Origin: Candidatus Omnitrophota bacterium
Lineage (GTDB): Bacteria > Omnitrophota > Gorgyraeia > Tantalellales > Tantalellaceae
Assembly (NCBI GenBank): GCA_014728045.1
Contig: WJMH01000015.1
Location: 22,479-86,478 of the forward strand
DNA: 64,000 nt
Reading direction: 5' to 3'
Shown piece after piece: positions 5,068 to 62,343 of the stretch. Numbering within the stretch: position 1 is the stretch's first letter; every line of letters starts with the position of its first letter. The position numbers and the translations under genes were made by a program. The notes below the pieces were generated by a model. The model did no database searches and had not been told where the DNA came from. It saw only the letters and a list, made by a program, of their open reading frames with translations.

Positions 5068-5258
5068 TTGCCCTTCATCTTGAGAACGTCCTTCAGTTCG
5101 CTGAAACCTGAAAGCACGGCTATAATGCCCGCGAAAATAAGAACAAGAGGAAGCACGCCGCGCAGAACGAAAATAAGTTCATACCACCAGGAAATGAGCA
5201 GTATCAGTCCCACCACCATCACTATCGCGCCTATAAGAAGGCTCAGCAATTTACCCAT
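5064..5258 (-). CDS. small two-TM membrane protein, function unknown
   Basis: 64 aa with two hydrophobic helices. Stop overlaps the downstream lipoprotein start (ATGA), which suggests translational coupling. Confidence 0.4.
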   Translation of the reverse strand: MGKLLSLLIGAIVMVVGLILLISWWYELIFVLRGVLPLVLIFAGIIAVLSGFSELKDVLKMKGK

Positions 5259-5341
5259 TTTATTACCTCCATTTTATGGTTACTTGGATACGGGAAAATG
5301 AGTATAACACAGTTTTTTTTACGGTGTCAATACGGGTTGCT

Positions 5342-6715: not shown

Positions 6716-6847
6716 GATCGAATATCCGCTGGATCTATCCGCGTGTTAAGGATTCTACTGATATTATTATACGGTCTATGAGCTTTATTTCCAAAATGTT
6801 TTTATTATTATAGAGATAATACGAAAATATGTTATAATCTCACCATT

Positions 6848-7738
6848 ATGACCAGATCGGGTTTTGTAGCCATATCGGGGCAGCCCAACGTGGGCAAGTC
6901 CACCATACTCAACGGGTTCCTGGGAGAAAAGGTAGCCATAACCAGCAGGAAACCCGAGACGACAAGGGACAATATAAGGGGCATCCTTTCCGAAGACGGG
7001 ATGCAGATCGTGTTCGTGGATACTCCCGGCATCCACAAACCCCACGACCTTCTGGGCAAGCTCATGCTCTCCAGGGCCCAGTCCACCCTGATGGAAGCGG
7101 ATATCATTCTTTTCATAACAGAGAAAAAGCTCGCCTTTAACAGTGAGGACCAGCTGATACTGAGCCGACTTCCAAAGCCCCAGGAAAACAGAAAGGTCAT
7201 CCTCGTCATAAACAAGGTGGACAAGGTGAAGGACAAGAAGCTCCTCCTGCCCGTCATCGACAAAGCCAGCAAGTTCTACCCGTTCGCCGAGATCGTTCCT
7301 GTCTGCGCCCTTAAACAGGCGGACCTGGACAGACTTCTGCAGGTAGTGAGGTCCTACGTGCCGGAAGGCCCGTTCCTTTACCCGGAGGAGCAGCTCACCG
7401 ACAGGGGCGAGGAATTCGCCGTCAGCGAGATCATACGCGAGAAGGTATTCTCCAACACCTACCATGAGGTGCCCCACTCGGTGGCGGTTGTGGTGGACGA
7501 AATGACCGAGGAGGACGGGCGGATGAACGTATACGCAACCATCTACGTCGAACGCGCCTCCCAGAGGTCCATCATAATCGGTAAGTCAGGCTCGATGATA
7601 AAAAAGATCGGGCGCGCCGCGCGCAGCGAAATAGAGAAACTGCTCTCGATGCGCGTGCACCTGGACCTGTGGGTCAAGGTCTACGAAAAATGGAAAAAGG
7701 ACCCGCGGGGCCTCAGGGACATGGGTTATACCGGCTAG
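6848..7738 (+). CDS. era: GTPase Era
   Basis: 296 aa. G1 motif GQPNVGKST, DTPG, NKVD, and a C-terminal KH domain. Divergent from mgtE across an AT-rich promoter region with a TTATAAT-like box near 6830. Confidence 0.9.
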   Translation: MTRSGFVAISGQPNVGKSTILNGFLGEKVAITSRKPETTRDNIRGILSEDGMQIVFVDTPGIHKPHDLLGKLMLSRAQSTLMEADIILFITEKKLAFNSEDQLILSRLPKPQENRKVILVINKVDKVKDKKLLLPVIDKASKFYPFAEIVPVCALKQADLDRLLQVVRSYVPEGPFLYPEEQLTDRGEEFAVSEIIREKVFSNTYHEVPHSVAVVVDEMTEEDGRMNVYATIYVERASQRSIIIGKSGSMIKKIGRAARSEIEKLLSMRVHLDLWVKVYEKWKKDPRGLRDMGYTG

Positions 7739-33828: not shown

Positions 33829-33879
33829 ATCGACAATACCTACACCTACCCCCCCGTAGCCTTTTGTAAGCTTTAACAA

Positions 33880-40000: not shown

Positions 40001-43000
40001 TCATGATCGCGTGTATCGCGCCGTTGGAGCCCCTTAACCTGTTACCTCCGGAACCGTAAGCGAGACTTACCGTGACGGGGTTGCCGTCGGCGTCGGTCAC
40101 GACACGCCCGTCTTCATCGGTCACGGCGACTTCCTGGACGCCCCCTTTCTGCAAAACGTACATATTGAGAGAGTAACTGAGTAGATCCACGAACTTCCTA
40201 ACGTCACTTTCCCGGAGGGGCTTGTCCATGCGGCCCATGAGGTAGAGGTCTATCATCCTTTCGAGGGATTCCCTGATCATGTACCCCTCGTCACGGGCGG
40301 TCCGGTCGTATCTTAACAGCCCCCTTGTATCATATATATTGAGTATCCCGTCTATAGAAGTGGCGAGCGCGTTCTTAAGACCCTCCAGGTTCTTCCTTCT
40401 TTCGCCGGCACGGTCGAAGAGCTCAGAGTCCCTTCTGACCCGCCGCGCTATAGCATCGCCGTAGCCTATCGGCATCATCTGCAGCTTCTTCTGGAGGTCC
40501 TCTATCTCGCTTTCTTCGGTCATTTCAACGTTGATCAGAGTATTGAGCGTCTTGAAATCAAGTTCATCTTTTTTGATATCGACACGCGAAAGCGCAGGAT
40601 CCGTTATCCGGGACCTGTTGACCCTGAAAGCGACCTGCTTCTTTTTTTCATCCATCAGGTCCTTGAGTATGGGAACTATAGACTTGCGGTAGGCGGTCTC
40701 CAAAGCCTCCATGAGCTCGCTGAGATCAGCGGCTCCCTTTTCCATCAGTTCCTCTATCCGGTCTATCGCCTCGTCCCTCCTCTTTTTATCCTTCTCGTCC
40801 CTGAACCTGGTCTTTTTAACCTCGTCCAGGGCTTCCTGGAGGATGGACTCAAGTTCCTCTCCCGAAGGCATCCTCTCCACCGTTACTATGCCTTCGGATA
40901 TCAGACTCTCCAGAGCCGAGAACTGTTCCCGGCCTATGGGGCCCACCACCGAGAACTTGGCGGAATGTGTCTCCCGGCGTCTTTGTTCCTGACGGTCTTC
41001 CACGACTGCGTCTATGGCCTCGAAAAAAGCCTTCTCAAGATCAGGCCTTCCCTTGAAGGCCTCATCCAGGGCGTCTTCTGTCATGACAAGAACCCTCATC
41101 GGGGTATCGGCGACGACATCAGCGTTCCTGCGCGTCCTGTGTACCAGAGCTATCTCGCCTACCATCTGCCCGGCGCCGTTATCCGTCTGGAAGACGGTGT
41201 TCTTGGTCCTGCTCCCTATGAGCGGATAATCCACCCTGTACCCCCCAGAAAGCACGAAATACGCGGAATTATCATCCGGAGTTCCCGCCTTGATAAAGGT
41301 CTCCCCGGGCTGTATATATGTAACGCCCAGGTTTTCGCTCATTCTTCTGACGAGTTCATCACGGTCTTCCCGGGAAAGCGAATTGAAAAAGACATTGAGA
41401 TCAGAACCTTCTACCTGAAAAGCATTCTCTATGACTTCAAGGGATTCACCGTAATCGACGACCCCCATCCTGTTCCTGCCGCTTGCCAGAAGCTGTTCCT
41501 GCTCGCGGGAGAGGCCCCGGTCACGCACCAGCCGCTGAAGGGCATCCGCTATGTCCTGCGCCGCGTCGATCTTGCCGTCCTGGAAACTGCTCCTCAGCCT
41601 CTCAAGCGAAGTGGATAATTTGCTTATCTTGACCGGGCTGAGCCCGGGCCGGTTCTGCCTGCCCTCGGCCATGGCGGGAAGGATATCTTCCTTTACACGG
41701 GCGATCTCAGAGGCTATCTCAGCGTCGTTCAAAAGCCCCTTGACCATGTCGCCTATCTCCATGCGCGTGTTAAGGAAGAAATCATCCAGCTCCTTCTGTA
41801 TTTCGGCCTTTCTCTCCTTCTGGAACTGTGAACTGAGTGAATTCACCGTTCTCTGGAGTCCGTTCAGGAAGTTTACCAGGCCCACAAGTTCGTCAGCGGC
41901 TTTCTGTTTGTCATCCTCTTGTCTAAGTCTGCGCGCCAAGGTATATACCAGGTTACTGGCGGTGGATGAAGCAAATGAATCGATCTTGTCGGAGTATCCT
42001 GTCATCGCGTAATCATCCAAGGTGCGGCAGAGACTTTTTGCGGAGGTGATCAGGCCCTCGCTCTCCAGCTGGCGCCTTATAGCGGGCAGCATCTTTGAAG
42101 TAAGCTTAAGACCTCCTTCCAGAGGCGCGGTATAGTCCCTGTCCACTTCGAGCCTTTCTTCGGCTTCCATCTGCCAGACGGCGGCGGTCACCAGTTCACC
42201 CGCCTCATCCGGTTTCTTAAGCGGAGTCTCATCCGCGAGAAGTTTATCCCGCCTGTCATTAGCGCGATAGGCCTGTTCAACCTGCTCTGCGAGTATATGG
42301 TCGCCGTAGATGCCGCCGACTATTTCATGGAGGATAACGCTTCGCCCGTCCCTGCCGATCCTGCCGTCCGCGTTCTGGTACTTTGCGTTTATGCGTATAC
42401 CGTAACCGCCCGGAGTACCTTCGAAATTCACCCCTTCAACTGTACGTACAAGGGGAAGTCCCGTGAGAACACTGTTGCCGGTAAGTCCTTTTACTATCTC
42501 TTCGACATCAGGGGAGATGCCCATCGCTTCGAGAAAGGGAAGCAGGTCGTTATTTATTATATCGTCAAGTTCCCCTTCGGGGATGTCCTTGAAGCTTTCG
42601 GGAGCCTGCAGGCTAATAGCTTCCATCTGCTGGTCTGTCTCGCGTTCATGTACCCGGTGGAGGAGTTCCCGGAGGGGCATGGTAATGGGCCTTCCCTTCT
42701 TCATCCTGAGGACAAGATCCTCTCCCTTTCTTTCGATACCTACGATCTCGTTGCCCTCGGCGATAGCCTTCTGGTTCTGGGTGACCACGATCACGGCCGC
42801 CTTGAAAGCGTCTATGCTCCTTCGATCCCATACGTCCTCTCCCAGCGGAGAGAGAAAACTCGCCACCTGTATGAGTGAAGCCTCGCTCAGGATCCGGTAC
42901 ATCTTCTCGTAGGTGCCGGAGATCTTCCCCGAAAGAAGGTCGAAATACGGGCATTCGTACCCCTTTTCGTTCTTGAAGTCCGGAATTATCGAAACATAGG

Positions 43001-44680: not shown

Positions 44681-47600
44681 TCAGGCCCTTGCCAGCATAA
44701 GCTTGATATTCTCCATTATATCCCTGAGTCTTTCTATCCCAAGGCTGGTAGCATCCGGGATAAGACGCAGCACCATGGCTGACCTTGTCTCCCCGAAAAG
44801 CAGATCGCGTTCGATCATGCTAAGCTCATCATAAGAAATAACATTGGGGATCGTCCTGTAGCATTCCATCAATGTTTGCCTGTCCCATCCCAGATGTCTG
44901 CCAATGGCAAAAAGCATGGTTTCAAGTACCGGCAGGTAAGCACCTTCCGGAAGGTCCGAAGAATCTATACCGGCAAGAGTAGCCCTGCCCTCGAACCTGT
45001 CGTAATACTCCAGGTTATTCTTGCTTGTTAGAACTATCAGGTTCTCCGGATCCACCGAGCCTTTTTCCGGATCGGTGAGGCTCTCCACCCTCCTGGCAAG
45101 TATCCCGCCTTCGCCTTTTATTATCTCAAGGTCCCTGAAGAACCTCTCGAGATCCTTATTGTTCTTCTCAAGATCGGGAAGAACTTCCAGTATATCCCGC
45201 ATGATGGAATTCACCCGGCCTTCGCCTATATCAAGATCCAGCGCGATCAGCACCTTTTTCTCTTTTCCGGAAAAAGCGAAAAGCGAATTCACTATCTCGT
45301 TTATAACCCTTGATGCGTTCCGGATGATGGAGGCGGCAAGGGATCTGCTTGAAGCCTTCTGTTTCTCCTCGGCCCTGCGGATCTTGCCATACTCAACGGG
45401 ATAGGCGTATCTGGCAAGTTCCAAAGCCCTCCGGGATGTCTCCGGGCCGGAAAAACACATTGAAAGAACCGACTGCTTTACGGACTTAAAATCCCCTCTA
45501 TATGCCTGGTCCAGTATCCGCTGCACCTCTTCGGGGAAAATATGCGACCTGATCCTGTCGATATGCGCGTCAACCAGATCCCGGAAACGTTCGTGAATAT
45601 TACCGTTTACCAGCCGGACCACGTCATTTGCCTCCGGATCGTCCCTGAGACCGGTATCGATGGTCTCGAGGGCGGTACTGACAAGATCGGTATTCAGCAC
45701 GTAACGGCCGAGGAATTCATCAAGCTGCACGTTTTCAAGCCTGTCCATATTGACCTTGCCCACAACCAGGTCTTCCCTGTAAAAAGCACCGATCTGCTCT
45801 TTCATGTCCAGGTATATCTTTTCCAGCTCTTTGTCGGTTATCCCGTATCCATTCGTGCTGGCGCTGGACGCCGTCACCAGATAGAACGCCATGGCAAGTT
45901 TTCTCTTCATCAACGCGTTGGAACCGATCAGGAAGAACTTTGTCTGGGTGCCCCCGGTCGCGGGGTCGTCCCCGCCAAGGCGTTTTCCCGTCCATGGGTC
46001 TATGGCGTAACCCTTTCTTCCGGCGGCTATCCAGGGCTTGCCGGGGACTTCTCCCGACGAGGTCCTGCTTACCGGGCGGGCGCCTGCGAAATACATAAGA
46101 GAAAAAAGAAACAAACCTTCGCGCATATGGTCACCGGATACGGTTATCCCGAAATCCCTTGCATCTATTATGCGCATGTTCTCGAGCTGGCCGGCGAACA
46201 GGAGCATGACCGGATACGGGGCGGGCGGGAGCCTTATGATCCTTTCACCGTTATTCTTCAGCACGGACCTATCCAGCTCATGTGGCGTCCTGGTCCGGGA
46301 TATGTAATTGACAAGCTTGGCCCTGAGGCTGTGCTCGGCGTCCACAGCCGACAGAAGCTCCCTGCCGGACCTGTGATAATCAAGCCCCATTGCCGGATAA
46401 TCCTTCGAGATCTTTTCAAGAACCATTAGCCCGGGTATGACCTCTTCTTTCAATCTCGCGATAAATCTCTCTGAGATCTCTTCTTTTGAGGCGACTTCCT
46501 CCAGTAGCAACAGCTTCACGTATGCCTGCGCGCCTATTGAAAGAGCCGAAAGGTCCAGCAGGTCATATGTCTCATCCACAATCCGCATCAGATTTTGACC
46601 GTTCTCACAAAGACGCTGGTAAAGTGGCACATCCGGAGTGTTCGAAGAAAGCTCGGCTATGAGATCCCTCTCAGCTTTCCTGCAGAACTCAAGGGCCTCT
46701 TTTTCGTCCATATCCAGGCCGAACTGGCCGAAGTAACGCAATGTACCTTCGAGGTTCTCCCCGGCACAGGCTCGCGCAACGGATTCGGCGTGCCTTCTGC
46801 CTCTGAGACCGAATTTCCTGAAATTGACCGCGGTGGACCTGCCGTTGTGACGCGCGCAGGATAATGCTAAATTCAAAATGACCTCCTGGTGGTGTTCCTC
46901 ATCAAATCCGAAATTCCGGAAATTCACGGCCACGCTCTCCGGGCTCTCGCGTGAGGCTATCTGCGCTATACCCGAGACCTCTCTGAGCTCCTTACGGGAT
47001 GCGGTGGGGTCAAGACCGAACTGGTCGAAATACAGCGCTACGCCGTGTCCGTTCTGCATCGCCGAGAGCGTGGCGATCTTCACGGCGTGAGATCTCTCAA
47101 CCAGGCCGAATCTTTTGTAATGCCGGGAAGTGCTCTCCCCGTCGCAGGAAGCGCAATGCTGTGCCAGGTCCAGGATGAGGTGCTCATGGTGTTCCGCATC
47201 AAATCCGAAATTCCGGAAATTCATGGCTGCATGACCGGCGGCGACATTTATGCATAAGAGCGCGATCTCATGGACTGTCTCCGGGTATCTGTACGGATCA
47301 AGGTTGAACTGGGAGAACGACTCAACAGTCTTCCTGGGAGACTGCCCCGCGCTCTTTAAGGCTAATCTGGCCCTGAGAGAAGCATATTCGTGCTGATCGA
47401 TATCGATACCGAATGTGCTTTTGGTAACTTCCTTGATACGGGGGTACTCTCTCGCGATAAGTCCGCCCTCTGGCACCAACCCCATAACGAAACCTACCAG
47501 GTCATCATCCCTGCCCCTCTTGAAGAAAGATGCGTACATTCCGTCCATGCCGGATCTGCGCAGAAAAGCCACCATAAGATTTACGAATAAGTGCCATCCC

Positions 47601-48589
47601 ATACTGAGCAGGAGCGCCCATGCAGGCTGCGAGGCCAGAACCGAAGCGAGCGCTATCCCGCCTGCGGCGGTCGCGAAAGGCGCTGCGAACACGCTAAAAG
47701 CTCTTTTAAGATCCAGTCTGGTTCTCTCTTGCGCAGACAAGTTATAAATGTGACCAGCGGTAAAGACGCTCCCGGCGAGGATCAGCCCACTATAAAAAAG
47801 GCCGATCATGAGCGGTGGTGCGACGCAGCCGAACTTCCTCAGAAAGATAAGAACACCAAGTGGTAACCCCACCTTCAAAAGCTCTTCAGCGACCGGCGCA
47901 TGGAAAAAAGCGGAGTACCTCACCTTGAGCCTTGAAGCGACGAAGTCAAGAGAACTCGTATGAGGAGAGGTCCGGCCTTCTTCCTCCTGGGGCGGACTTC
48001 CAGGGACGTCCGGACCCGTACTTTCGCCGGGCTTCGGCGCGACCGACTCCCGTATAAGGCGTTCATCGCGCCCGTCATCCCCGTTCAGGATGATCTGCCG
48101 CGCAAGATACTCTCCTATCCTTTTCTGTTCTATCACCCTGCGTCCGGGGTTACTGCCTAGGGCATCTCTCAGCTTGGGATTGTAATAACGGATGATACAC
48201 AGCCCGAGGTCGATAACAAACTCTCCTTCTTCGGCTTCGTCTTTTATAACCGGCAAAGCCTCAAGAATGCGCACCGAAGTTTCGAGTTGATTTATCGCCT
48301 CTTGCGCGCGGTCTTTCATCCTGAAAATATTCCGGTTAAGAGGATCTCTCTCGCAAGCGGCAAGAGTGCCGGTAAGGTAGGCCATCACTGCAGAAACTTG
48401 GCCGGCGGGATCACTGATCAGCGTTCTTGGCTGCAACTGGTCACGGTTTGTTATCAGACCAGGATCGGCCCAGACCATACCCTGCCAGAGCAGCAGGACG
48501 CTCAGAAGTATCGATACGCATCTTATCGGATATATGTATTTCCGCGTTTTTATCATAGTATCATTATGATCATTTAATACAACATTCAT
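44681..48589 (-). CDS. giant membrane protein A' (1302 aa), paralog of A, function unknown
   Basis: Uninterrupted 3.9-kb ORF. The N-terminal ~180 aa and the C-terminal ~190 aa align with gene A (for example ...LVLTSKNNLEYYDRFEGRATLAGIDSSDLPEGAYLPVLETMLFAIG...MLARA versus ...LIVITSNKNTAYYSSFQGRSVIAGIDDSEFPEAAYLPLLDIMLFAIG...MLARA). Signal peptide and TM region present. An alternative start at ATG 48556 (MIKTRK..) gives a more canonical signal peptide. Confidence 0.85.
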   Translation of the reverse strand: MNVVLNDHNDTMIKTRKYIYPIRCVSILLSVLLLWQGMVWADPGLITNRDQLQPRTLISDPAGQVSAVMAYLTGTLAACERDPLNRNIFRMKDRAQEAINQLETSVRILEALPVIKDEAEEGEFVIDLGLCIIRYYNPKLRDALGSNPGRRVIEQKRIGEYLARQIILNGDDGRDERLIRESVAPKPGESTGPDVPGSPPQEEEGRTSPHTSSLDFVASRLKVRYSAFFHAPVAEELLKVGLPLGVLIFLRKFGCVAPPLMIGLFYSGLILAGSVFTAGHIYNLSAQERTRLDLKRAFSVFAAPFATAAGGIALASVLASQPAWALLLSMGWHLFVNLMVAFLRRSGMDGMYASFFKRGRDDDLVGFVMGLVPEGGLIAREYPRIKEVTKSTFGIDIDQHEYASLRARLALKSAGQSPRKTVESFSQFNLDPYRYPETVHEIALLCINVAAGHAAMNFRNFGFDAEHHEHLILDLAQHCASCDGESTSRHYKRFGLVERSHAVKIATLSAMQNGHGVALYFDQFGLDPTASRKELREVSGIAQIASRESPESVAVNFRNFGFDEEHHQEVILNLALSCARHNGRSTAVNFRKFGLRGRRHAESVARACAGENLEGTLRYFGQFGLDMDEKEALEFCRKAERDLIAELSSNTPDVPLYQRLCENGQNLMRIVDETYDLLDLSALSIGAQAYVKLLLLEEVASKEEISERFIARLKEEVIPGLMVLEKISKDYPAMGLDYHRSGRELLSAVDAEHSLRAKLVNYISRTRTPHELDRSVLKNNGERIIRLPPAPYPVMLLFAGQLENMRIIDARDFGITVSGDHMREGLFLFSLMYFAGARPVSRTSSGEVPGKPWIAAGRKGYAIDPWTGKRLGGDDPATGGTQTKFFLIGSNALMKRKLAMAFYLVTASSASTNGYGITDKELEKIYLDMKEQIGAFYREDLVVGKVNMDRLENVQLDEFLGRYVLNTDLVSTALETIDTGLRDDPEANDVVRLVNGNIHERFRDLVDAHIDRIRSHIFPEEVQRILDQAYRGDFKSVKQSVLSMCFSGPETSRRALELARYAYPVEYGKIRRAEEKQKASSRSLAASIIRNASRVINEIVNSLFAFSGKEKKVLIALDLDIGEGRVNSIMRDILEVLPDLEKNNKDLERFFRDLEIIKGEGGILARRVESLTDPEKGSVDPENLIVLTSKNNLEYYDRFEGRATLAGIDSSDLPEGAYLPVLETMLFAIGRHLGWDRQTLMECYRTIPNVISYDELSMIERDLLFGETRSAMVLRLIPDATSLGIERLRDIMENIKLMLARA
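46700..47290 (-). repeat. intragenic ~297-bp tandem repeats inside giant gene A'
   Basis: ATCAAATCCGAAATTCCGGAAATTCA(C/T)GGC recurs at 46901 and 47198. The encoded ~99-aa units each contain YFxQFGLD and NFRNFGFDxEHHxxxILxLAxxCA. Confidence 0.7.
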
Positions 48590-52833: not shown

Positions 52834-52869
52834 AAAAAAAACAGGGGCGGACATGACCGTCCGCCCCTG
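52834..52869 (-). terminator. rho-independent terminator (fba; also serves the convergent GT2 gene)
   Basis: Perfect 11-bp stem CAGGGGCGGAC / GTCCGCCCCTG with a 6-nt loop. It is flanked by an A8 run on the plus strand, which is U8 on the minus-strand transcript. Confidence 0.7.
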
Positions 52870-52892
52870 TGTGATCTTGCCCTCCGGGCTAC

Positions 52893-54016: not shown

Positions 54017-54760
54017 TTAATGGACCTCTGCGGTCATCCTCCCCTTGAACGGGTTAGTCCGCATCGCCAGTGAAAATAGATACGGGTACGACTTCGAGAG
54101 GTGTCTCATATAATCTATCCATTCATATAAAAGCTGCCCGTACGCCCGTTCAACGTCCCCCGCCAGGTGTTCAAGATCGGTTTCCGGGACTTCGGCGAGA
54201 TCATCCCTGTGCTGGAGTTCCTCCGCCAGATGGAAGACCGCCCAGAGAAGATCGGTGAACGAGTCATGTTCAAGAAGGTTCGGATTGGCCAGAAGGTTCA
54301 TTAAAAGGTTCCTTTTACCGGATAAAAGGTCCCGAACCTCCACCAGTTCGCCGGCGTTAACCGAAAGGCTGAACCCGTGCTGGGAAACAAGTTTTTTCGC
54401 TGAGTCAAAATCCCCGTGTGTCCATTCCGAATCCGGTCTCAGCGCCTTCTTCAGAGCCTCCGAATCCCGGTCAAACCCGGAAAAGATCCTCAAAAGGTCT
54501 GTCCCCACGTCACTGAAGAAGGTGCCGATGAGCATGTTCATCTTGTTGAGCAGGTGCCTCTTCTCGCGTTTCTCCAGGAGATGGTGTATTATCAGCGTAA
54601 CGAGCAGGACCTCCACCGGGACGAACGCGATATCCCCTAACAGGTATATGAAGATATGGTGGGCATCATGGAATATCCTGAAGTGGGTGTAATACAAGGC
54701 CGCTGAAAGCGCGATAAGAGCCAGCGCCATGCCGACCCGCCAGTTGAATATCCTTTTCAT
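54017..54760 (-). CDS. membrane protein with cytoplasmic helical domain, function unknown
   Basis: 247 aa. Two N-terminal TM helices with His-rich HHIFIYLL / IIHHLL, then a soluble domain with no recognisable motifs. Confidence 0.45.
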   Translation of the reverse strand: MKRIFNWRVGMALALIALSAALYYTHFRIFHDAHHIFIYLLGDIAFVPVEVLLVTLIIHHLLEKREKRHLLNKMNMLIGTFFSDVGTDLLRIFSGFDRDSEALKKALRPDSEWTHGDFDSAKKLVSQHGFSLSVNAGELVEVRDLLSGKRNLLMNLLANPNLLEHDSFTDLLWAVFHLAEELQHRDDLAEVPETDLEHLAGDVERAYGQLLYEWIDYMRHLSKSYPYLFSLAMRTNPFKGRMTAEVH

Positions 54761-54812
54761 CTGAATGCCTCCGTATATATCGTTCTGTGGGCGTCCTTCA
54801 GTTACGGACGGT

Positions 54813-55154
54813 TCAATCGCCCCTGATCATAACAAGCATCATCTTGAGCCTGCTCGCTGCTTTTACTGAATGTGGCCTGTTGGCGGGCATGATTATGATC
54901 TGGCCTTTTTTAAGATCATGTTTTTCTGAAGATATGACCACTTCTCCGGTTCCTTCTATGACTCCTACCAGCGCGTCGAACGGAGCGGTATGTTCGCTCA
55001 GCCCCTCACCCGCTTCAAAAGCGAACACGCTGACCGTCCCTTCGGGCTTGTCTATAAGCGTACGGCTGACCACAGCTCCGGGCTGGTAGTCAATGACCTC
55101 CGCCAGATCGAGCGCTCTGGAGCTGAGAGGTTCTTTGTTATTATCTGATATCAT
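54813..55154 (-). CDS. cupin-domain protein
   Basis: 113 aa small-barrel cupin pattern (G..xxH..xxE..G..P...H). Confidence 0.6.
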   Translation of the reverse strand: MISDNNKEPLSSRALDLAEVIDYQPGAVVSRTLIDKPEGTVSVFAFEAGEGLSEHTAPFDALVGVIEGTGEVVISSEKHDLKKGQIIIMPANRPHSVKAASRLKMMLVMIRGD

Positions 55155-55169
55155 TATTCCACCTCCTGG

Positions 55170-55595
55170 TCATACCTCGCCGGTAAAGTCCGGGCCTTTT
55201 TTAAGAAGCGACCTGATCGTGATACTTTTCATCTCACGGGTAATGATCCTTTCCAGCTCATCCAGCTTCTTTTTGAGGAAACAAGTCTCTATGAACTGGC
55301 ATGTCTTGCCCTTGAAAAGGTGCTCGCTTATACTGAAGGGTCCCTGGAAGACCCTCATGACCGAGTAAACGCTGATCTTTTCAGGCGCAAGCGCCAGGGT
55401 AAACCCCCCGCCGCGCCCTTTTGAAGAATCAAGCAAACCCTCTTTATTGAGCTTCTGGAGTATCTTCCTCAGAAACGGCCTCTGCATGTCCAGCTTCCCC
55501 GTGAGGTCCCTTACCGAAAGCGTCTTCTCCCTCGCCCCGGCGATACAGCAGAGCGCGCGGATAGCATAATCTGTGTCTCTTGTTATCAGTTTCAT
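55170..55595 (-). CDS. Rrf2-family transcriptional regulator
   Basis: 141 aa. N-terminal wHTH (TDYAIRALCCIAG..) and GRGGGFTLA typical of Rrf2/IscR/NsrR. Only one Cys in the C-terminal half, so probably not a Fe-S-binding member. Confidence 0.8.
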   Translation of the reverse strand: MKLITRDTDYAIRALCCIAGAREKTLSVRDLTGKLDMQRPFLRKILQKLNKEGLLDSSKGRGGGFTLALAPEKISVYSVMRVFQGPFSISEHLFKGKTCQFIETCFLKKKLDELERIITREMKSITIRSLLKKGPDFTGEV

Positions 55596-55620
55596 GATAT
55601 TTTGTGGCCATAACGCCTTA

Positions 55621-56049
55621 TCAGCGCTTCTTGCCGCCGACCTTGTCGATTTCCCTGGAGACCACCTTCATGGTGCCGTCATCTTCTATCTCAACGTACA
55701 CGCTGACCTTAAGCTGTTCATTGTTGTCAAGGTCCCGGAATATAGCGCTTGAATAGTAGTACTCTTTCTCCTCACCCTCGACCGTCACAAGGGTCTTGCT
55801 GACGCCCTTATTAAATTTAAGCACGTAAAGCCTTCTCTGGCGTTCTATCCTGGGATCGTATACTGTGAAAAAACCATTTTCCCGCTGTTCTGAGACAACA
55901 CGGTCCCTTATGAAATCCTGGACCTTTTGGGGCACGGGCTCTGTCTCCTGCCGAGGGTAATATAATCTGTAATCCACCGCCAGAGCACCGCGCAGAAGCA
56001 TGAGTGTCATAAATGCGACCACAGCAAAGAAAAAGGTCCTCTTGAGCAT
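55621..56049 (-). CDS. secreted protein, function unknown
   Basis: 142 aa from ATG 56049 (MLKRTFFFAVVAF.., preceded by AGGAGG). Signal peptide. Confidence 0.45.
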   Translation of the reverse strand: MLKRTFFFAVVAFMTLMLLRGALAVDYRLYYPRQETEPVPQKVQDFIRDRVVSEQRENGFFTVYDPRIERQRRLYVLKFNKGVSKTLVTVEGEEKEYYYSSAIFRDLDNNEQLKVSVYVEIEDDGTMKVVSREIDKVGGKKR

Positions 56050-56059
56050 GTTCAGCCTC

Positions 56060-56692
56060 CTACTTGAATATTTCCCCGGTCTCCTCTGACCAGAACAATA
56101 GATCAAGTTCTTCCATTGGTATATCTATTTTTTGGGAGAACTTCCTCATCTTCTCCTCGATCCGGAGGTATCTGGCCCTTGATAGATTGGATGGGGCTTC
56201 TTCAACAACCCCGTACCTGATGAGGTTCCTGATTATGTGCACGTCCAGTATCGCAAGCCCCCTGCCGAATCCTATGTTCCTCAGGAAATGGCTCGCTTCC
56301 TTATATCCGAGACCCTTCACGTTCATCACGAGCCAGTCACGGGTCTTGAGTATATCGCCCGGGTCTATTTTATCCTTGATCCTGATAGAACCGTCGGTGG
56401 TGAAGAGCTTTCTAGCTCCGACTATGTACCTGGCCTTGTTATTCGGAAAGCGCACCGCCTCAAGGCCTTTTCTTATCTGTCGGACGGTGCCGGTAAAAAG
56501 GGTACCGCTCCTCTCAAGGCGCGAGACCGCCTTATCGCAGTATACCGCCCGTGACTGCGGGGTGCATATACAGAAACACAGCTCACTGAAGATCTTCTTT
56601 TCAGTTCCGTTCCATGTTTTCTTGAATTGCCTGAGCCGCCTTTTTATAAGGTCCTTTTTTCGCGCGTGGCCGGCGATGAGTTCTTTCATCAT
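56060..56692 (-). CDS. N-glycosylase/DNA lyase, Ogg2-type 8-oxoguanine DNA glycosylase
   Basis: 210 aa. HhH-GPD region VKGLGYKEASHFLRNIGF...DVH, with a length and pattern like archaeal-type Ogg. Confidence 0.65.
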   Translation of the reverse strand: MMKELIAGHARKKDLIKRRLRQFKKTWNGTEKKIFSELCFCICTPQSRAVYCDKAVSRLERSGTLFTGTVRQIRKGLEAVRFPNNKARYIVGARKLFTTDGSIRIKDKIDPGDILKTRDWLVMNVKGLGYKEASHFLRNIGFGRGLAILDVHIIRNLIRYGVVEEAPSNLSRARYLRIEEKMRKFSQKIDIPMEELDLLFWSEETGEIFK

Positions 56693-56877
56693 GAGACCAG
56701 TTCTATGAGTTTTTTGGCGATCTGGATGTGGCGTTTCTCGTCATCCCTTATTTCGGAAAGGGTCTGTTTAATCTTTTCATCGTCCACCTGTTCTATGTAA
56801 TGGTCATAAAAACTCTTGGCCCTTTCTTCATAGCCCAGGATCTCCTCGAATTCCTTGCGCAGGTGATCAGTATTCAT
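56689..56877 (-). CDS. small helical protein with ferritin-like E..H signature (distal half)
   Basis: 62 aa from ATG 56877 (MNTDHLRKEFEEILGYEERAKSFYDHYIEQVDDEKIKQTLSEIRDDEKRHIQIAKKLIELVS). Overlaps the preceding small ORF by 11 nt in another frame. Could be the C-terminal half of a frameshifted ~140-aa ferritin-like gene. Confidence 0.3.
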   Translation of the reverse strand: MNTDHLRKEFEEILGYEERAKSFYDHYIEQVDDEKIKQTLSEIRDDEKRHIQIAKKLIELVS

Positions 56878-57109
56878 CACGCGAATCCTTTTCAATTTTG
56901 AGTAACAGCTCCTCGACCATTTCCCTGTGGCGGGAAGAGTCACGATGAAGTTGAGAGATAAGGCTATCTATCTTTCTGCGTTTCTCATCTTCGATGCCTT
57001 CGGTCTCACCGACGAGCACCTTGGTGAAATTAGTGAAGACCGTCACCATCCCTTCCTCTACGTAAATAAGCTCATGTAAGCCCGCAAGAAGCCTCTGTTT
57101 TGATATCAT
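56867..57109 (-). CDS. small helical protein with ferritin-like E..H signature (proximal half)
   Basis: 80 aa (..LHRDSSRHREMVEELL..). See the partner ORF 56689-56877. Confidence 0.3.
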   Translation of the reverse strand: MISKQRLLAGLHELIYVEEGMVTVFTNFTKVLVGETEGIEDEKRRKIDSLISQLHRDSSRHREMVEELLLKIEKDSRDEY

Positions 57110-57156
57110 ATCATACCGCTTTCCTTTGGTCGGGAAGAAGGGAAAGAACGCTGCAT

Positions 57157-57390
57157 TTAAAGATCAAGTGCCTCGTCTATTTTTTCCTTATCGAACCCGA
57201 CAATGATCTGTCCTTCTATATCCACAACGGGCACTCCCATCTGTTTGGATTTATCGACCATTTTCTGGACCTTGTCCTGATCCTGGGAAACATCGATATT
57301 ATCGAAATCCACGCCGTTATCCTTAAGATGTTCCTTGAGTTTTTTGCAGTACGGACATGTCGAAGTGGTGTAAATGGTCACATTTTTCAT
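57157..57390 (-). CDS. glutaredoxin-like protein (CPYC)
   Basis: 77 aa from ATG 57390 (MKNVTIYTTSTCPYCKKLKEHL..), which makes an ATGA overlap with the stop of the upstream ferritin-like gene. Thioredoxin fold with a CPYC active site. Confidence 0.75.
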   Translation of the reverse strand: MKNVTIYTTSTCPYCKKLKEHLKDNGVDFDNIDVSQDQDKVQKMVDKSKQMGVPVVDIEGQIIVGFDKEKIDEALDL

Positions 57391-57869
57391 TCGCTGCATC
57401 CCTTCTTCAATCCGAGCAGCCTCCGCAAATGTTCCTTCTCCTGCTCTATCAGTTCATCCACGAGATGCTTGTCATCATCAGGCACCAGCTCGCGCATCTC
57501 CTGGTAGAGAAGGATGGAATCCTTCTCGAAACCTATGCCCATTTCTATACCCTGGCGGCAGTCCTCAACTTTTTTCGCCATTTCGGATCCAGAACCCTTT
57601 TGGGTAAAAACATACTGCCCGGCCAGTGAGTTCATGTAGGAGAAATATTCATCCGGATAAGCCCCCTTGGGCTGGCGGTCACAGGAGGTGTCATGTATCT
57701 TCCTGAAAACCTCTATGTGTTCTTCTTCCTGATGCGCCAGGTCCCTCATAACCTGCTTTACCTCGTCCGTATCGGCCTTCTCCAGCAAGTTAAGATAGAA
57801 CTCCCTGCCGTTCTTCTCGATCTCTATGCCCATTTCGGCTATCTCGCAGCCTGTGAACTGCTTTGCCAT
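57387..57869 (-). CDS. rubrerythrin-like ferritin-like diiron protein (no rubredoxin domain)
   Basis: 160 aa. Paired E..ExxH motifs (EEEHIE, EKEHLR). RBS GAGGAGG. Confidence 0.6.
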   Translation of the reverse strand: MAKQFTGCEIAEMGIEIEKNGREFYLNLLEKADTDEVKQVMRDLAHQEEEHIEVFRKIHDTSCDRQPKGAYPDEYFSYMNSLAGQYVFTQKGSGSEMAKKVEDCRQGIEMGIGFEKDSILLYQEMRELVPDDDKHLVDELIEQEKEHLRRLLGLKKGCSE

Positions 57870-57894
57870 GGCTAAACCTCCTCAAGGTTGGTGT

Positions 57895-58473
57895 TCAATA
57901 ATTCTCGGCCAGCACCTCGTAATAAGCCTGCGGGTGGCGGCACGCCGGGCAGACCTGTGGCGGTTCTTCCCCTTCGTGCACGTAGCCGCAGTTACGGCAG
58001 TGCCACTTAACGGTTGAAGACCTCTTGAATACCGTGCCTTTTTCCAGGCTTTCGAGGAGTTTCCTGTATCTGGCCTCGTGCTCTTTCTCCACCTTGCCTA
58101 TTTCGTCGAACTGCTCGGCTATTTCTTCGAACCCTTCAGACCTGGCCACTCCCGCGAAATCCTTGTACAGGCTGGTCCACTCCAGCTGTTCGCCGTCCGC
58201 TGCAGCCTCGAGGTTCTCGGCCGTATTGCCGATGACACCCGCGGGGTAAGCAGCAGTTATCTCCAGATCCCCTCCTTCAAGATATTTGAAGAACCTTTTG
58301 GCGTGCTCTTTCTCGTTCTCGGCGGTTTCCAGGAATATCGCGGCTATCTGCTCATAACCGGCCTTTTTCGCCACACTGGCGAAATACGTGTATCTATTCC
58401 TTGCCTGCGACTCGCCAGCGAAGGCGGCAAGAAGGTTTTTCTCGGTCTGTGTGCCTTTCACGCTCTTTTCCAT
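57895..58473 (-). CDS. rbr: rubrerythrin
   Basis: 192 aa. N-terminal diiron four-helix domain (ExxH x2) plus a C-terminal rubredoxin-like CxxC...CxxC (WHCRNCGY...CPACRHP). Confidence 0.85.
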   Translation of the reverse strand: MEKSVKGTQTEKNLLAAFAGESQARNRYTYFASVAKKAGYEQIAAIFLETAENEKEHAKRFFKYLEGGDLEITAAYPAGVIGNTAENLEAAADGEQLEWTSLYKDFAGVARSEGFEEIAEQFDEIGKVEKEHEARYRKLLESLEKGTVFKRSSTVKWHCRNCGYVHEGEEPPQVCPACRHPQAYYEVLAENY

Positions 58474-58494
58474 GTTTTCTCCTTTCGTCCTCTT

Positions 58495-58914
58495 CTAAGC
58501 CTTCCACAACATATGCACGTTGCAGAACTCCCTTACTTCAACTATATCACCCTTTGAAACGCAGCAGAAATGTGCCTGTGGGTTGTCGCCGGGCTTAAGC
58601 TCATATCTCATGACCTTGTCTTGCGTCAAGACCTCGATGAACTTGATATAATGGTCCTCTTCCATGGGGTGCGGCTCGCTGCCGATTTTGACCTCTATAC
58701 AGACAGACCCTTCCCCGCAGGAGGCGCAGGATACGTCCTCCTTACCGGTCTCACTGACCACGGGAACGTGTTTTTCCTGCCCTTTATCCTCTGTCTTGGC
58801 CTCAAGCTTGACCATAGGCTTCTCGCAGCAGACAAGTGACGGTGCCCCCTCTTTGGCTATCTCGACGACATGCCCGCATACCTCACAATAATATAAGTCC
58901 CGTAACCCTGTCAT
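58495..58914 (-). CDS. dfx: desulfoferrodoxin (2Fe superoxide reductase)
   Basis: 139 aa. N-terminal desulforedoxin-like CEVCGHVVE..LVCCEKPM, then a KHVPV..H..H..C..H SOR centre II. RBS AAAGGAGG. Confidence 0.85.
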   Translation of the reverse strand: MTGLRDLYYCEVCGHVVEIAKEGAPSLVCCEKPMVKLEAKTEDKGQEKHVPVVSETGKEDVSCASCGEGSVCIEVKIGSEPHPMEEDHYIKFIEVLTQDKVMRYELKPGDNPQAHFCCVSKGDIVEVREFCNVHMLWKA

Positions 58915-58991
58915 AGCGACCTCCTTTGCCCTGCGGGGACCTGCGGCCCGGCAGGCTAAATGCGTCTATTCTTCTTAATTGATTGGGGTAA

Positions 58992-59129
58992 TTAGACCGG
59001 TTCGAACTGGTCTTTTCCGACACCGCATTCGGGACATACCCAGTCATCGGGAAGATCGTCAAAAGCAACATTATCGTTCTCCGCCGGATCATAGATATAT
59101 CCGCAAACAGTACATCTGTATTTCTGCAT
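58992..59129 (-). CDS. rd: rubredoxin (45 aa; below the ORF-track length threshold)
   Basis: Hand translation of the minus strand: [45 protein letters not shown] with the two CxxCG knuckles. ATG 59129 is preceded by AGGAG with 7-nt spacing (an alternative start is MAMQ.. at 59135). Confidence 0.8.
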
Positions 59130-59217
59130 GGCCATGCTCCTTTCTGATAATTGGATCAACTCGCTATCAGTTCACTCTATTTTATGTCAGTTGGGATTAT
59201 CTTTCTACTGTTATTTA

Positions 59218-59240: not shown

Positions 59241-59266
59241 TTCTTGAGACACTCCTAATTCGAACC

Positions 59267-59301
59267 AGCCCCGCACCGGCAACATACCCCGATGCGGGGC
59301 T
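59267..59301. other. stable GC-rich hairpin in the 410-bp intergenic region
   Basis: AGCCCCGCA (17-nt loop) TGCGGGGCT, a 9-bp perfect stem. It is followed on the plus strand by TATTCTCTT, and on the minus strand lies between a small Cys-rich ORF and the Fur-like box. Confidence 0.4.
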
Positions 59302-59333
59302 ATTCTCTTATCGCGTCCAAAGGCAGTTTAACG

Positions 59334-59411
59334 TCATGCCCGGGACCTGGTACAGCATCCCTCTTTGCAATGCGTCACCGGACGCAACATAAATTTCAAG
59401 GTTACATTCAT
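59334..59411 (-). CDS. putative 25-aa Cys-rich small ORF (possible leader peptide)
   Basis: AAAAAAGGAGGAGCTT-ATG; peptide MNVTLKFMLRPVTHCKEGCCTRSRA*. Strong SD with ideal spacing, followed 33 nt later by the hairpin. No homology assessable. Confidence 0.25.
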   Translation of the reverse strand: MNVTLKFMLRPVTHCKEGCCTRSRA

Positions 59412-59553
59412 AAGCTCCTCCTTTTTTAAGCCATTATTCACTCCACACTTTAATGATACCATGATAGTATCATTTGTCAAGGGTGATAATGTACCTTTTT
59501 TATACCCGGATACCTAACTTCCGCGAAAAGGAATAACCGCGGGAAAAAACTTT

Positions 59554-60099
59554 TTACAAAAGGTCTTTTATACGAGATTCGAAAAATTCCCTGTCTCTAT
59601 ACCCTACGACCTTTTCGACGATCCTGCCTTGTCGATCGATTATGAAAGTGGTCGGTATCCCCCTTATCCCGCCGTATGCGCTGACCGTGGCCTGATCGCC
59701 CATAACAAGGGGATAACTTACGTCGGCTTCACGGGCGAACTCCCTGACAGGTGCCGCCCCTGCCCTGTCCAGGCTCACGCCCACTATCACAAGGCCCTCT
59801 GACTTGTAGCGCCTGTAAAGTGCCTCGAAATGAGGGACTTCCATCCTGCAGGGCGGGCACCATGTCGCCCAGAAATCCAGTATGACCACCTTCCCCTCTG
59901 TGTTCGACAGGCTGAAGTCATTGCCACTTATATCTTTAAGTGTAAAGTCCGGGGCCGTCTGACCGTCACTGACCGCGGATGAACTCTGACAGGAGAGAAC
60001 GCCCCCGGCCAGCAGTATAAGCATTACCAAAGGCAGGATCACAAATCTATTTTTCACCGCTTCCTCCTCCATTTTATTTAGCAAAACCGTAAAATTCAT
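59554..60099 (-). CDS. TlpA/ResA-family thiol-disulfide oxidoreductase lipoprotein
   Basis: 181 aa. Thioredoxin fold WATWCPPC and lipobox VLSC. Start uncertain: ATG 60099 overlaps ccdA by 26 nt; the alternative is ATG 60072. Confidence 0.75.
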   Translation of the reverse strand: MNFTVLLNKMEEEAVKNRFVILPLVMLILLAGGVLSCQSSSAVSDGQTAPDFTLKDISGNDFSLSNTEGKVVILDFWATWCPPCRMEVPHFEALYRRYKSEGLVIVGVSLDRAGAAPVREFAREADVSYPLVMGDQATVSAYGGIRGIPTTFIIDRQGRIVEKVVGYRDREFFESRIKDLL

Positions 60100-60802
60100 C
60101 GGGTATGTACCTGGTAAGAACGCCGAGACTGTCGAAAAATATCAGGATCCCCACTATTATCAGAAAGAGACCCGCTATAACTTCTCCGGTGCGTATGAAC
60201 CTTTTATAACGCTCAAAGAACTTCATGAAAACCCCCACGGCGAAGCCCGTAAGAATGAAAGGTATCCCCAAACCCATGGAATAAACCAGTAAAAGCAGAA
60301 CGCCTCTTACCACTGTCTCCTGGGTTGCGGCAATAGCGAGTATGCCGGCGAGTATCGGACCCACGCACGGGGTCCAACCGAACCCGAAAGCCATTCCGAT
60401 AAAAAAAGCCGATGCCGGGGACGGGGCCGCGGGACTGATATCGAATTTTTTCTGGTAATTCAGCCAGCTGAGATTGAATAGACCCACCAGATGAAGACCA
60501 AGCAGAACGATAACCACCCCGGCTATCTTGGTGATCAGGCCCTGGTATTCCGAAAGCAACCTTCCGATAAAGGTCGCTGAAGCACCAAGGGCCGTAAAAA
60601 CCACTGAAAAACCGAGAACGAAGAATATCGATACTATACCGGCTTTTACAAGAACCTTTTTTTCGGGAGCTCCCCTCTTCAATTCCTCCAGGGAGGTTCC
60701 GGAAAGGAACGAGATATAACCGGGGACCAGCGGAAGCACGCAGGGAGAAAGGAATGAAAGCACCCCTGCCAGAAAAGCTATCCCGAATGAAACATTCTCC
60801 AT
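60074..60802 (-). CDS. ccdA: cytochrome c-type biogenesis protein CcdA (DsbD-family thiol-disulfide transporter)
   Basis: 242 aa, 6-8 TM. Conserved Cys in TM1 (LSPCVLPLVPGYISF) and a second TM Cys (GWTPCVGP). Confidence 0.8.
   Translation of the reverse strand: MENVSFGIAFLAGVLSFLSPCVLPLVPGYISFLSGTSLEELKRGAPEKKVLVKAGIVSIFFVLGFSVVFTALGASATFIGRLLSEYQGLITKIAGVVIVLLGLHLVGLFNLSWLNYQKKFDISPAAPSPASAFFIGMAFGFGWTPCVGPILAGILAIAATQETVVRGVLLLLVYSMGLGIPFILTGFAVGVFMKFFERYKRFIRTGEVIAGLFLIIVGILIFFDSLGVLTRYIPDEFYGFAK

Positions 60803-60924: not shown

Positions 60925-62343
<1,419 letters not shown>

Follow-up and report, generated by a model that had tools for sequence, protein, structure and literature searches.

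The 64-kb stretch of contig WJMH01000015.1 analysed here (hereafter the window, to which all positions refer) comes from a metagenome-assembled genome of Candidatus Omnitrophica/Omnitrophota, a lineage whose members are uncultured, mostly anaerobic and often ultra-small, and whose physiology is inferred from genomes only. Between positions 54017 and 59129 it carries a run of twelve genes on the minus strand, in which proteins for the detoxification of reactive oxygen species (ROS) stand together with a DNA glycosylase for oxidised guanine and a regulator of the Rrf2 family. We interpret this run as a putative oxygen-defence cluster. Read in the direction of transcription, with protein lengths in amino acids (aa), its genes are the following:

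58992-59129, minus strand: rubredoxin (Rd), 45 aa (PF00301)
58495-58914, minus strand: desulfoferrodoxin (Dfx), a 2Fe superoxide reductase, 139 aa (PF06397 and PF01880)
57895-58473, minus strand: rubrerythrin (Rbr), 192 aa (NF045767; PF02915 and PF21349)
57387-57869, minus strand: rubrerythrin-like (Rbr-like) di-iron four-helix protein without a rubredoxin domain, 160 aa (PF02915)
57157-57390, minus strand: YruB-type glutaredoxin-like (Grx) protein with a CPYC motif, 77 aa (TIGR02196, PF00462)
56867-57109, minus strand: mini1, a helical hairpin, 80 aa (no family)
56689-56877, minus strand: mini2, a helical hairpin of di-iron type, 62 aa (sub-threshold ferritin-like matches)
56060-56692, minus strand: Ogg2-type 8-oxoguanine (8-oxoG) DNA glycosylase/AP lyase, 210 aa (PF22175, NF002305)
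55621-56049, minus strand: signal-peptide protein, accessory, 142 aa (no family)
55170-55595, minus strand: Rrf2-family regulator, 141 aa (PF02082)
54813-55154, minus strand: small cupin (Cupin_2), 113 aa (PF07883, 41.9 bits)
54017-54760, minus strand: membrane protein with two transmembrane segments, of an MJ1433-like family, accessory, 247 aa (homologue search)

Genes were assigned by Pfam and NCBIfam profile searches against curated cut-offs. Nine of the twelve, among them Rd, Dfx, Rbr, Rbr-like, Grx, Ogg2, the Rrf2 regulator and the cupin, gave matches above these cut-offs; mini1, the signal-peptide protein and the membrane protein matched no family in either collection. An earlier note on this DNA had proposed the same twelve minus-strand genes in this order. 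Every open reading frame (ORF) was found at the coordinates that it had given, and the profile searches bore out the identities. Nine of the cluster proteins were also recovered from GenBank by exact look-up, with accessions within MBD3426661-MBD3426672. The start codons of Rd (59129), Grx (57390) and mini2 (56877) agree with Shine-Dalgarno (SD) spacing.

The rubredoxin had been regarded in that note as a gene that length-filtered annotation would miss. The profile search confirmed the protein, with 57.8 bits against PF00301 (cut-off 23) and the cysteine pairs C6xxC9 and C32xxC35; an SD motif AGGAG lies 7 nucleotides (nt) before the ATG at 59129, and copies in relatives are 73-93% identical. 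The gene is real but was not missed, because GenBank, through PGAP, already lists it as MBD3426672.1, 'rubredoxin'. Its 75.3 bits against NF045768 remain under the 90-bit equivalog cut-off because a protein of 45 aa is compared with a model of 54 positions.

The remaining enzymes keep the residues expected of their families. In Dfx, the ligands of centre I (C10, C13, C29, C30) and of centre II (H49, H82, H88, C131 and H134, with E47 and K48) do not vary among 58 sequences; the score against TIGR00320 (134.3 bits, equivalog cut-off 146.9) is low because a 13-aa insert breaks the model. Rbr scores 303.9 bits against NF045767 (cut-off 200) and combines PF02915 with PF21349, that is, a di-iron four-helix domain with a C-terminal rubredoxin-like domain. 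The Rbr-like protein matches PF02915 with 46.7 bits, and its residues E18, H51, E144 and H147 are invariant, E48 and E115 nearly so. The glutaredoxin-like protein reaches 101 bits against TIGR02196 (cut-off 88.6) and 67 bits against PF00462.

The DNA glycosylase scores 192.8 bits against PF22175 and 211.7 against NF002305 (cut-off 183). It matches, over its full length, the known Ogg2 family (Methanocaldococcus jannaschii Ogg, MjOgg, PDB 3fhf/3knt; Thermotoga, 3n0u) and keeps the helix-hairpin-helix motif with the catalytic Lys and Asp. In the alignment with MjOgg (3fhf; 5e-32) the segments GLGYK131EASHFLRN and ILD150VH are conserved, and K131 and D150 fall on the active-site residues, the first of them on the Lys that is Gln in PDB 3knt. 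The protein is thus predicted to excise 8-oxoG. What sets it apart from the known members of its family is its location inside a ROS-detoxification cluster, where its start is ATGA-coupled to mini2.

To place the run among its relatives, a scan anchored on the Ogg gene, with one genome per species, gave 80 loci (numbered L001 onwards). Synteny was counted in the 44 bacterial loci with at least 3.5 kb upstream of Ogg, for neighbours on the same strand within 8 kb. The closest loci all belong to Omnitrophota, although some are filed as 'uncultured Planctomycetia'. Upstream of Ogg we found Rd in 39/44 loci, Rbr in 38/44, Grx in 37/44, the Rbr-like gene in 35/44, Dfx in 29/44 and the mini pair in 19/44. 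An Rrf2 orthologue occurs anywhere in the locus in 32/44; it either follows Ogg immediately or opens the cluster in front of Rd, in some cases accompanied by the cupin, which is often paired with Rrf2 (Rrf2-cupin pairs are present in L001, L017 and L029). Since the core Rd-(Dfx)-Rbr-Rbr-like-Grx-...-Ogg2 is kept in most of the 44 loci, the phylum, judged from gene order, characteristically couples ROS detoxification to 8-oxoG repair and to an Rrf2 regulator. The functional theme that the earlier note had recognised, namely Rd-Dfx-Rbr detoxification together with Ogg2 repair and Rrf2, is supported by this conserved synteny. No paper was found that describes the cluster in Omnitrophota, an Rrf2-controlled Rd/Rbr operon, or an Ogg gene linked to rubrerythrin.

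In relatives the cluster is usually larger. Between Rd and Dfx they carry a ferritin in 16 loci and a flavodiiron protein in 27, and between Grx and mini1 a thioredoxin-reductase-like (TrxR-like) flavoprotein in 35. All three are absent from our cluster and from the full 64-kb window, and at the two positions concerned just 77 nt (58915-58991) and 47 nt (57110-57156) are left, which were compared with positions 5071-6848 and 8657-9580 of L001. By this comparison the window holds a reduced, compact version of the cluster, from which the ferritin, the O2-reducing flavodiiron protein and the TrxR-like gene have been lost. In their absence, no gene near the cluster is an obvious reductase for the Grx-like protein or for Rd.

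The unit had been thought to start with Rd at 59129. Instead, a promoter that appears to be regulated, a 25-codon ORF and two hairpins lie upstream of it at 59262-59480, within the 424 nt that precede Rd:

59452-59480, minus strand: promoter P1 with a 23-bp palindrome (palindrome at 59452-59474), from the promoter scan
59334-59411, minus strand: micro-ORF MNVTLKFMLRPVTHCKEGCCTRSRA, 25 aa, unannotated, with the SD AAGGAGG
59321-59341, minus strand: conserved small hairpin with the stem GGGCA/TGCC(Y) and the 11-nt loop NGACGNTAAAC, at the 3' end of the micro-ORF
59262-59305, minus strand: GC-rich leader hairpin between the micro-ORF and Rd, -30.7 kcal/mol, z = -6.4
59179-59207, minus strand: P2, a second promoter-like site before Rd, TAGAAA-17-TAAAAT, from the promoter scan

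P1 (TTGACA-16-TATCAT with TG, 59480-59453), a promoter of sigma-70 type, has 11/12 matches and ranks first among the promoter-like sites of the region. Inside it lies the palindrome AATGATAC-N7-GTATCATT, which occurs only once in the window; the consensus of 50 such sites is CTTGACAAATGATACTAnTATGGTATCATTA. In related loci the promoter and palindrome are kept nearly base for base, upstream of Rd or of the micro-ORF, and in L038 P1 immediately precedes Rd. Where Rrf2 stands apart or comes first, the palindrome is found 22-41 nt or ~250 nt before the Rrf2 gene, directly upstream of it in L035, L036, L044, L045, L051, L053, L055, L059, L060 and L070 and upstream of Rrf2-first clusters in L017, L020 and L029. 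Altogether, palindrome, Rrf2 gene and cluster are co-located in more than 50 loci. Because elsewhere it precedes the Rrf2 gene, the palindrome is likely the Rrf2 operator, and this conserved promoter-operator ties the regulator to the theme of the cluster. The palindrome covers the spacer and the -10 box, so a bound dimer should repress. Its 8-7-8 layout also has the length and the 7-bp centre of the operator fragment of Streptomyces coelicolor NsrR (ScNsrR), which measures 23 bp with a 7-bp central region (PMC9338935).

The regulator is a clear member of the Rrf2 family (PF02082, 101.7 bits, cut-off 30; TIGR00738, 97.5 bits, cut-off 73.3), and no match to the Fur/PerR family was obtained with Pfam or NCBIfam among the twelve genes and four flanking genes. 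It had been noted that the protein seems to lack the three cysteines that bind an iron-sulfur cluster. This is literally correct, since its C-terminal region has only C99 and C105, but the implied non-cluster regulator does not follow. At E <= 1e-5 the regulator matched two solved structures, one of which is ScNsrR (PDB 5n07). There, three Cys and, from the partner monomer, Asp8 bind the [4Fe-4S] cluster (PMC5411485), and the alignment places D9 on D8, H92 on C93, C99 on C99 and C105 on C105. Among 71 orthologues, the D9 column is Asp in 70 and the C99 and C105 columns are Cys in all 71, while column 92 has 46 Cys, 24 His and a single Lys, with His invariant in the sub-clade of the window and Cys in the sister clade. 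Because either Cys or His is found there, column 92 behaves as expected of a metal ligand. The best reading of these residues is a metal or cluster sensor with the predicted ligand set D9/H92/C99/C105. The protein resembles ScNsrR, RsrR, IscR and RirA in its winged-helix Rrf2 profile, its N-terminal Asp and the aligned C-x5-C (PMC5411485), and differs from these Fe-S sensors in the His that replaces the first Cys in its sub-clade, in scores below every equivalog cut-off, and in its neighbours, which are ROS-defence genes.

Our interpretation of the locus is a co-regulated oxygen/ROS-defence cluster under its own Rrf2-family repressor, to which we assign a probability of about three in four. 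In reduced cells, the Rrf2 dimer would carry a metal or Fe-S centre on Asp9', His92, Cys99 and Cys105 and would occupy the palindrome over the P1 spacer and -10 box, thereby blocking RNA polymerase. O2 or ROS would oxidise or strip this centre and release Rrf2 from the palindrome; transcription would then pass through the micro-ORF and the leader hairpins and on from Rd to the membrane protein, and would include the Rrf2 gene, resulting in negative autoregulation. Reduced rubredoxin would supply both Dfx, which would convert O2.- to H2O2, and rubrerythrin, which would convert H2O2 to H2O. The Rbr-like protein and mini1/mini2 would add more di-iron four-helix proteins that serve as peroxidase, ferroxidase or iron buffer, while the YruB glutaredoxin-like protein would repair thiols and Ogg2 would take 8-oxoG out of DNA. 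The enzyme chemistry in this model rests on established knowledge of these protein families.

Clusters of this type are well known. The PerR regulon of Desulfovibrio includes the operons rbo-rub-roo and rbr. Clostridioides difficile has the oxidative-stress operon rbr-perR-rbo-CD630_08280 (10.1101/2024.09.17.613384). The C. difficile operon and the clostridial and Desulfovibrio PerR regulons share with our cluster the rubrerythrin, desulfoferrodoxin and rubredoxin module of anaerobes and a repressor of their own inside the operon. PerR-type operons take O2.- and H2O2 to water (10.1101/2024.09.17.613384; PMC11980386), and we propose the same logic here. The present cluster differs from them in that its regulator belongs to the Rrf2 rather than the PerR/Fur family, and in that it adds Ogg2, the YruB glutaredoxin-like protein, an extra Rbr-like protein, mini1/mini2 and the leader micro-ORF. 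The new details are the likely repressor with its DNA site, a tiny unannotated gene, and a putative iron protein split over two genes. The model gives a concrete and testable account of how Omnitrophota may survive oxygen, with a defined gene set and a candidate sensor with unusual Asp/His/Cys/Cys ligands. The 23-bp candidate operator could be used for regulon prediction in any Omnitrophota genome, and 8-oxoG excision would be genetically wired into ROS detoxification in this phylum.

Several observations weigh against this interpretation. No rubredoxin reductase is encoded in the cluster or anywhere in the 64-kb window. The tail of the run (secreted protein, cupin and membrane protein) varies among relatives, and the membrane protein, which adjoins the cluster in L006, L033, L043 and L062, belongs to a family that also occurs in unrelated contexts. 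Regulator and operator are paired by their co-location, and the regulator scores only 30-70 bits against its NCBIfam relatives RirA, SufR, NsrR, IscR, CymR and HypR, whose cut-offs are 110-275, which by these profiles leaves it in no named equivalog. We infer O2 or ROS as the sensed signal, with NO or iron as alternatives. P2 and a very stable hairpin are located between P1 and Rd and, downstream, a 152-nt gap with promoter-like sites before fba argues against one operon.

The organisation of the transcript has to be judged mainly from the packing of the genes. Although the run occupies one strand, this layout says little, since nearly the whole second half of the window is minus-strand: almost all genes from ~28 kb to its end have this orientation, and further minus-strand genes flank the run on its upstream side (TlpA/ResA-like, CcdA, Gdh) and on its downstream side (Fba). 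It is the tight packing and the conservation that go beyond chance. The intergenic gaps measure 77, 21, 25, 47, 25, 15 and 52 nt, with 10 nt after Ogg, so that all but the single 77-nt gap are of 52 nt or less. Three junctions overlap; Grx starts on the stop codon of the Rbr-like gene, and Ogg on that of mini2, each through an ATGA. In the folding analysis, every intergenic gap inside the run was no more stable than shuffled sequence. The sole strong intrinsic terminator lies after fba (52841-52870, minus strand; 13-bp stem, 9 GC pairs, T7 run). This terminator, behind the gene for a class II fructose-bisphosphate aldolase, is the first clear one downstream of the run. On these grounds, co-transcription from Rd through the membrane protein seems to us slightly favoured over its absence, and a single transcript for all twelve genes is plausible.

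The same region could instead consist of several independent units (the micro-ORF; Rd to Ogg; Rrf2-cupin; the membrane protein) that lineage history has brought together without a single operon. P2 and the hairpin of -30.7 kcal/mol separate P1 from Rd, so P1 may mainly drive the micro-ORF; in many genomes Rrf2 is elsewhere with a promoter-operator copy of its own, the composition of the tail varies, and the region is minus-strand throughout anyway. For P2 itself, the window has the sequence CAGTAGAAAG...CATA(A/G)AAT in common with L001 and L011 only, which is weak evidence. We nevertheless consider independent units rather unlikely: the short gaps and the three overlapping junctions speak for continuity, stable structures are missing between the genes of the run, P1 stands directly before Rd in L038, and, as the window has one operator, the Rrf2 gene here would be left with no site of its own.

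A second alternative concerns the signal. If Rrf2 sensed iron or Fe-S status, as RirA and IscR do, rather than oxidants, the cluster would chiefly be an iron-protein or iron-buffering regulon. Nearly all cluster products are iron proteins, relatives have a ferritin inside the cluster, and among the NCBIfam models the regulator comes closest, below threshold, to RirA (70 bits) and the SUF regulator (66 bits); the half-site AATGATA also resembles Fur-box half-sites. This reading is improbable in our judgement, given that the cluster has no iron-uptake or Fe-S assembly genes, that Ogg2, Grx, Dfx and Rbr have damage-defence functions, and that ligand positions and operator geometry fit NsrR at least as well. 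The readings also overlap, as RirA-type clusters respond to O2 too (PMC5863699).

A regulon for nitrosative stress of the NsrR type appears more improbable still. The Asp/(Cys to His)/Cys/Cys positions of the regulator align with ScNsrR, and relatives carry a flavodiiron protein beside rubredoxin, a type of protein that can reduce NO (PMC6033852). However, the flavodiiron protein is absent from the window, the Hmp, Hcp and Nor genes are absent as well, and superoxide reductase, rubrerythrin and Ogg indicate oxygen species. We retain the oxygen/ROS-defence cluster as the preferred interpretation.

Two components of this cluster deserve separate description, and the first is the mini1/mini2 pair. 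The earlier note had listed 'two mini ferritin-like ORFs'; both are present, but they form a strictly conserved overlapping pair and are not products of decay. mini2 starts within the last 11 nt of mini1 (ATGAATACTGA), and the junction ATGAxTAYTGA is found with a start offset of 232 nt in 24/25 loci, at protein identities of 44-78%. The search with mini1 gave 186 homologues; among the best 120, 118 are exactly 80 aa long, and nearly all named ones are called 'hypothetical protein'. The search with mini2 gave 180, nearly all of 62 aa, some of which JGI calls 'rubrerythrin'. Among the matches listed, all those with a taxon name are Omnitrophota, and among the best 120 of each search none reaches the length of a fused mini1-mini2 form. 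Because the junction is conserved, the lengths are fixed and none of the listed matches has a fused length, mini1 and mini2 are, by this comparison, genuine translationally coupled genes and not one broken gene.

That the two ORFs are halves of a frameshifted rubrerythrin-like gene, dead or recoded, is accordingly very improbable. They do overlap in different frames, and the concatenated pair gives a colinear match to Pfam Rubrerythrin of 23.2 bits (cut-off 22.8). On the other hand, the 11-nt overlap comes with its own ATG and SD-like purines upstream in 24/25 loci, nearly every homologue has a length of exactly 80 or 62 aa, there is no slippery site, and hhalign against the Rbr-like family shows similarity at the level of the hairpin only. 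The pair was also considered as a split copy of its Rbr-like neighbour and this was rejected, as hhalign aligned only mini2, to helices A-B (81% probability), with no colinear match.

In mini1 the invariant residues are E18, E19, D57, S58 and H61, so that D57-S58-x-x-H61 takes the place of the expected ExxH, with Ser for Glu; mini2 has the invariant E17...E47xxH50. The latter resembles, below threshold, EncB/EncFtn, the designed 'Due Ferri' (DF) peptides, rubrerythrin and Mn-catalase-like proteins (Pfam Rubrerythrin 19.3 bits, cut-off 22.8; EncB 32, cut-off 90), and hhalign detects a weak homology between mini1 and mini2 (P = 1.3e-3). An AlphaFold2 (AF2) model of an artificial mini1-mini2 fusion, whose input alignment covered the mini1 half only, shows a four-helix bundle with good confidence (pLDDT 85.8, pTM 0.74). 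Structures similar to this model are generic bundles, among which are a designed 4-Glu/2-His bundle and an encapsulin iron-binding cargo protein. From these data we infer that mini1 and mini2 may assemble into a heterodimeric di-iron four-helix bundle. The closest known type is that of the two-helix di-iron proteins, namely the encapsulated ferritins EncFtn/EncB and the designed DF1/DF2 hairpin dimers. Unlike EncFtn/EncB, the mini pair is found without an encapsulin or a targeting peptide and scores below the family cut-offs; it departs from both EncFtn and DF in the D-S-x-x-H of mini1 and in consisting of two different genes. The invariant overlap of two different genes suggests an obligate heterodimer. 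Such a pair of half-ferritins would bear on how di-iron four-helix bundles arose from helical hairpins, and its relevance may extend outside this phylum.

The second component is the micro-ORF. Its peptide has the core ..MLRPVxHCKEGC.., and its SD AAGGAGG stands 5-8 nt before the ATG. It is kept in 15 Ogg-anchored loci, and a codon-degenerate pattern scan of metagenomes found it in at least 120 stretches, in two types; all told, it is present in more than 130 contigs. Type A, that of the window, reads M-D/N/K-I/V-T-I/V-K/R-Y/F-MLRPVAHCKEGC-S/C.. and is 25-27 aa long. Type B (MWTxRFRIRPVSHCKEGC.., ~20 aa) is preceded by a strong SD, and a hairpin begins at its stop codon. Among the matches listed, the operator lies upstream in 50/69 type-A loci and in 1/55 type-B loci, and type A is followed by Rrf2 in 42 cases, at a distance of 19-140 nt, and by Rd in 3. 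Type B was seen in metagenome loci L082-L201, for example in L090 (~10130), L095 (~3142), L110 (~7130) and L169 (~8044), and its neighbours vary: a thioesterase with a HIT protein, an HlyD-like protein, an SDR protein and tRNA genes.

In every codon that the search pattern leaves free, variation is highest at the third position, and the ATG is retained in 66/71 sequences. Because of this codon pattern and the retained start, the comparison indicates that the micro-ORF is translated and under purifying selection. From codon 12 on, conservation is at the nucleotide level, which is where the small hairpin forms. Its loop NGACGNTAAAC contains the stop codon of the micro-ORF and its stem has 5 bp; 92% of the cells of the alignment are paired, compared with 33-42% in slid controls, changes occur on both sides in 4/5 pairs, and 0/500 shuffles match the observed value. 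The GC-rich leader hairpin at 59262-59305 has an equivalent (-23 to -37 kcal/mol) after the micro-ORF in 14/15 loci; it has no U-tract in the window, and a U-run is present in some relatives. Rfam gave no match in the leader or in the type-B loci. A classical attenuator, with a terminator and U-tract under leader control, is not what is found here, as the hairpin of the window has no U-tract; in many loci, moreover, Rrf2 starts 19-50 nt after the micro-ORF, a distance too short for a terminator.

Taken as a whole, the peptides are a widespread family of 18-27 residues with His and Cys, sharing the core RPV-x-HCKEGC, and each has its end inside or at a conserved RNA hairpin. Within Omnitrophota the gene comes right behind the Rrf2 operator-promoter, usually directly before the Rrf2 gene. 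Ten micro-peptides were looked up as exact sequences in a collection of 15 billion proteins without a match, and the searchable literature has no paper that contains 'HCKEGC'. The idea that the cysteines of the peptide stand in for the missing Cys of Rrf2 was rejected, since micro-ORFs directly upstream of Rrf2 mostly accompany a three-Cys regulator (28 with Cys, 2 with His). We tentatively propose, as a joint claim that falls just short of even odds, that the HCKEGC peptides are a new small redox- or metal-responsive partner, or a cis translational sensor, of the Rrf2 switch and that mini1/mini2 is a natural heterodimeric 'due ferri' protein. The peptide family is invisible to gene callers and its relevance possibly extends beyond the phylum; if confirmed as true, it and the mini pair would be of higher interest than the cluster.

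Dfx has an unusual feature of its own. The 13-aa insert is a Cys-rich loop (residues 58-72, with C63, C66 and C72) between strands 51-57 and 72-77, and it is accompanied by an extra C117 beside C118. Across Omnitrophota this loop is hypervariable (none, CC, CxC..C or CxCxxCx5C), its longest forms going with 'HFCC', and in the AF2 model it is a low-confidence loop (pLDDT ~60). With these extra cysteines, disulfides or a third metal site are possible. An additional Cys-ligated centre in a superoxide reductase (SOR) has a precedent in methanoferrodoxin, which contains an extra Fe-S cluster (SORGOdb class IV; PMC3116461). Unlike in methanoferrodoxin, the extra cysteines of our protein lie in a variable loop of a Dx-SOR and at Cys 117, and metal binding by them is possible at most.

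The Ogg gene seems to have a history across domains. Its nearest relatives outside Omnitrophota are archaeal, at 46-59% identity (Aenigmatarchaeota, Thermoplasmata, Hydrothermarchaeota and Bathyarchaeia; loci L041-L079), which suggests inter-domain transfer. In several Thermoplasmata loci a rubrerythrin lies ~3 kb upstream of Ogg.

Of the accessory proteins, the signal-peptide protein is present only in L001, L004 and L011, and neither it nor the membrane protein has a family or a solved relative by sequence search. The family of the membrane protein comprises 1297 representative clusters of ~247 aa, in which H177, E181, D195, H198 and D202 are invariant; these residues may form a metal site. 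The sole lead on this family is a homologue, P0383, which carries the precomputed labels MJ1433_N and MJ1433_C and is found in an unrelated context.

Directly upstream of the cluster, at 59554-60802 on the minus strand, are genes for CcdA (DsbD_TM) and a TlpA/ResA-like thiol-disulfide oxidoreductase, which overlap by 26 nt. No operator copy precedes this pair in the window. Because the operator-promoter does precede it in L006 and L056, the pair may belong to the regulon in some genomes. A glutamate dehydrogenase gene follows just upstream of CcdA-TlpA (60925-62304, minus strand), at the same position as in L001, L004 and L008; it is also found upstream of the cluster in L003, L039 and L040. 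Elsewhere in the window, three very long minus-strand ORFs stand in a row at 28294-33879, 34071-44489 and 44681-48589, with ~1861, 3472 and 1302 aa, respectively.

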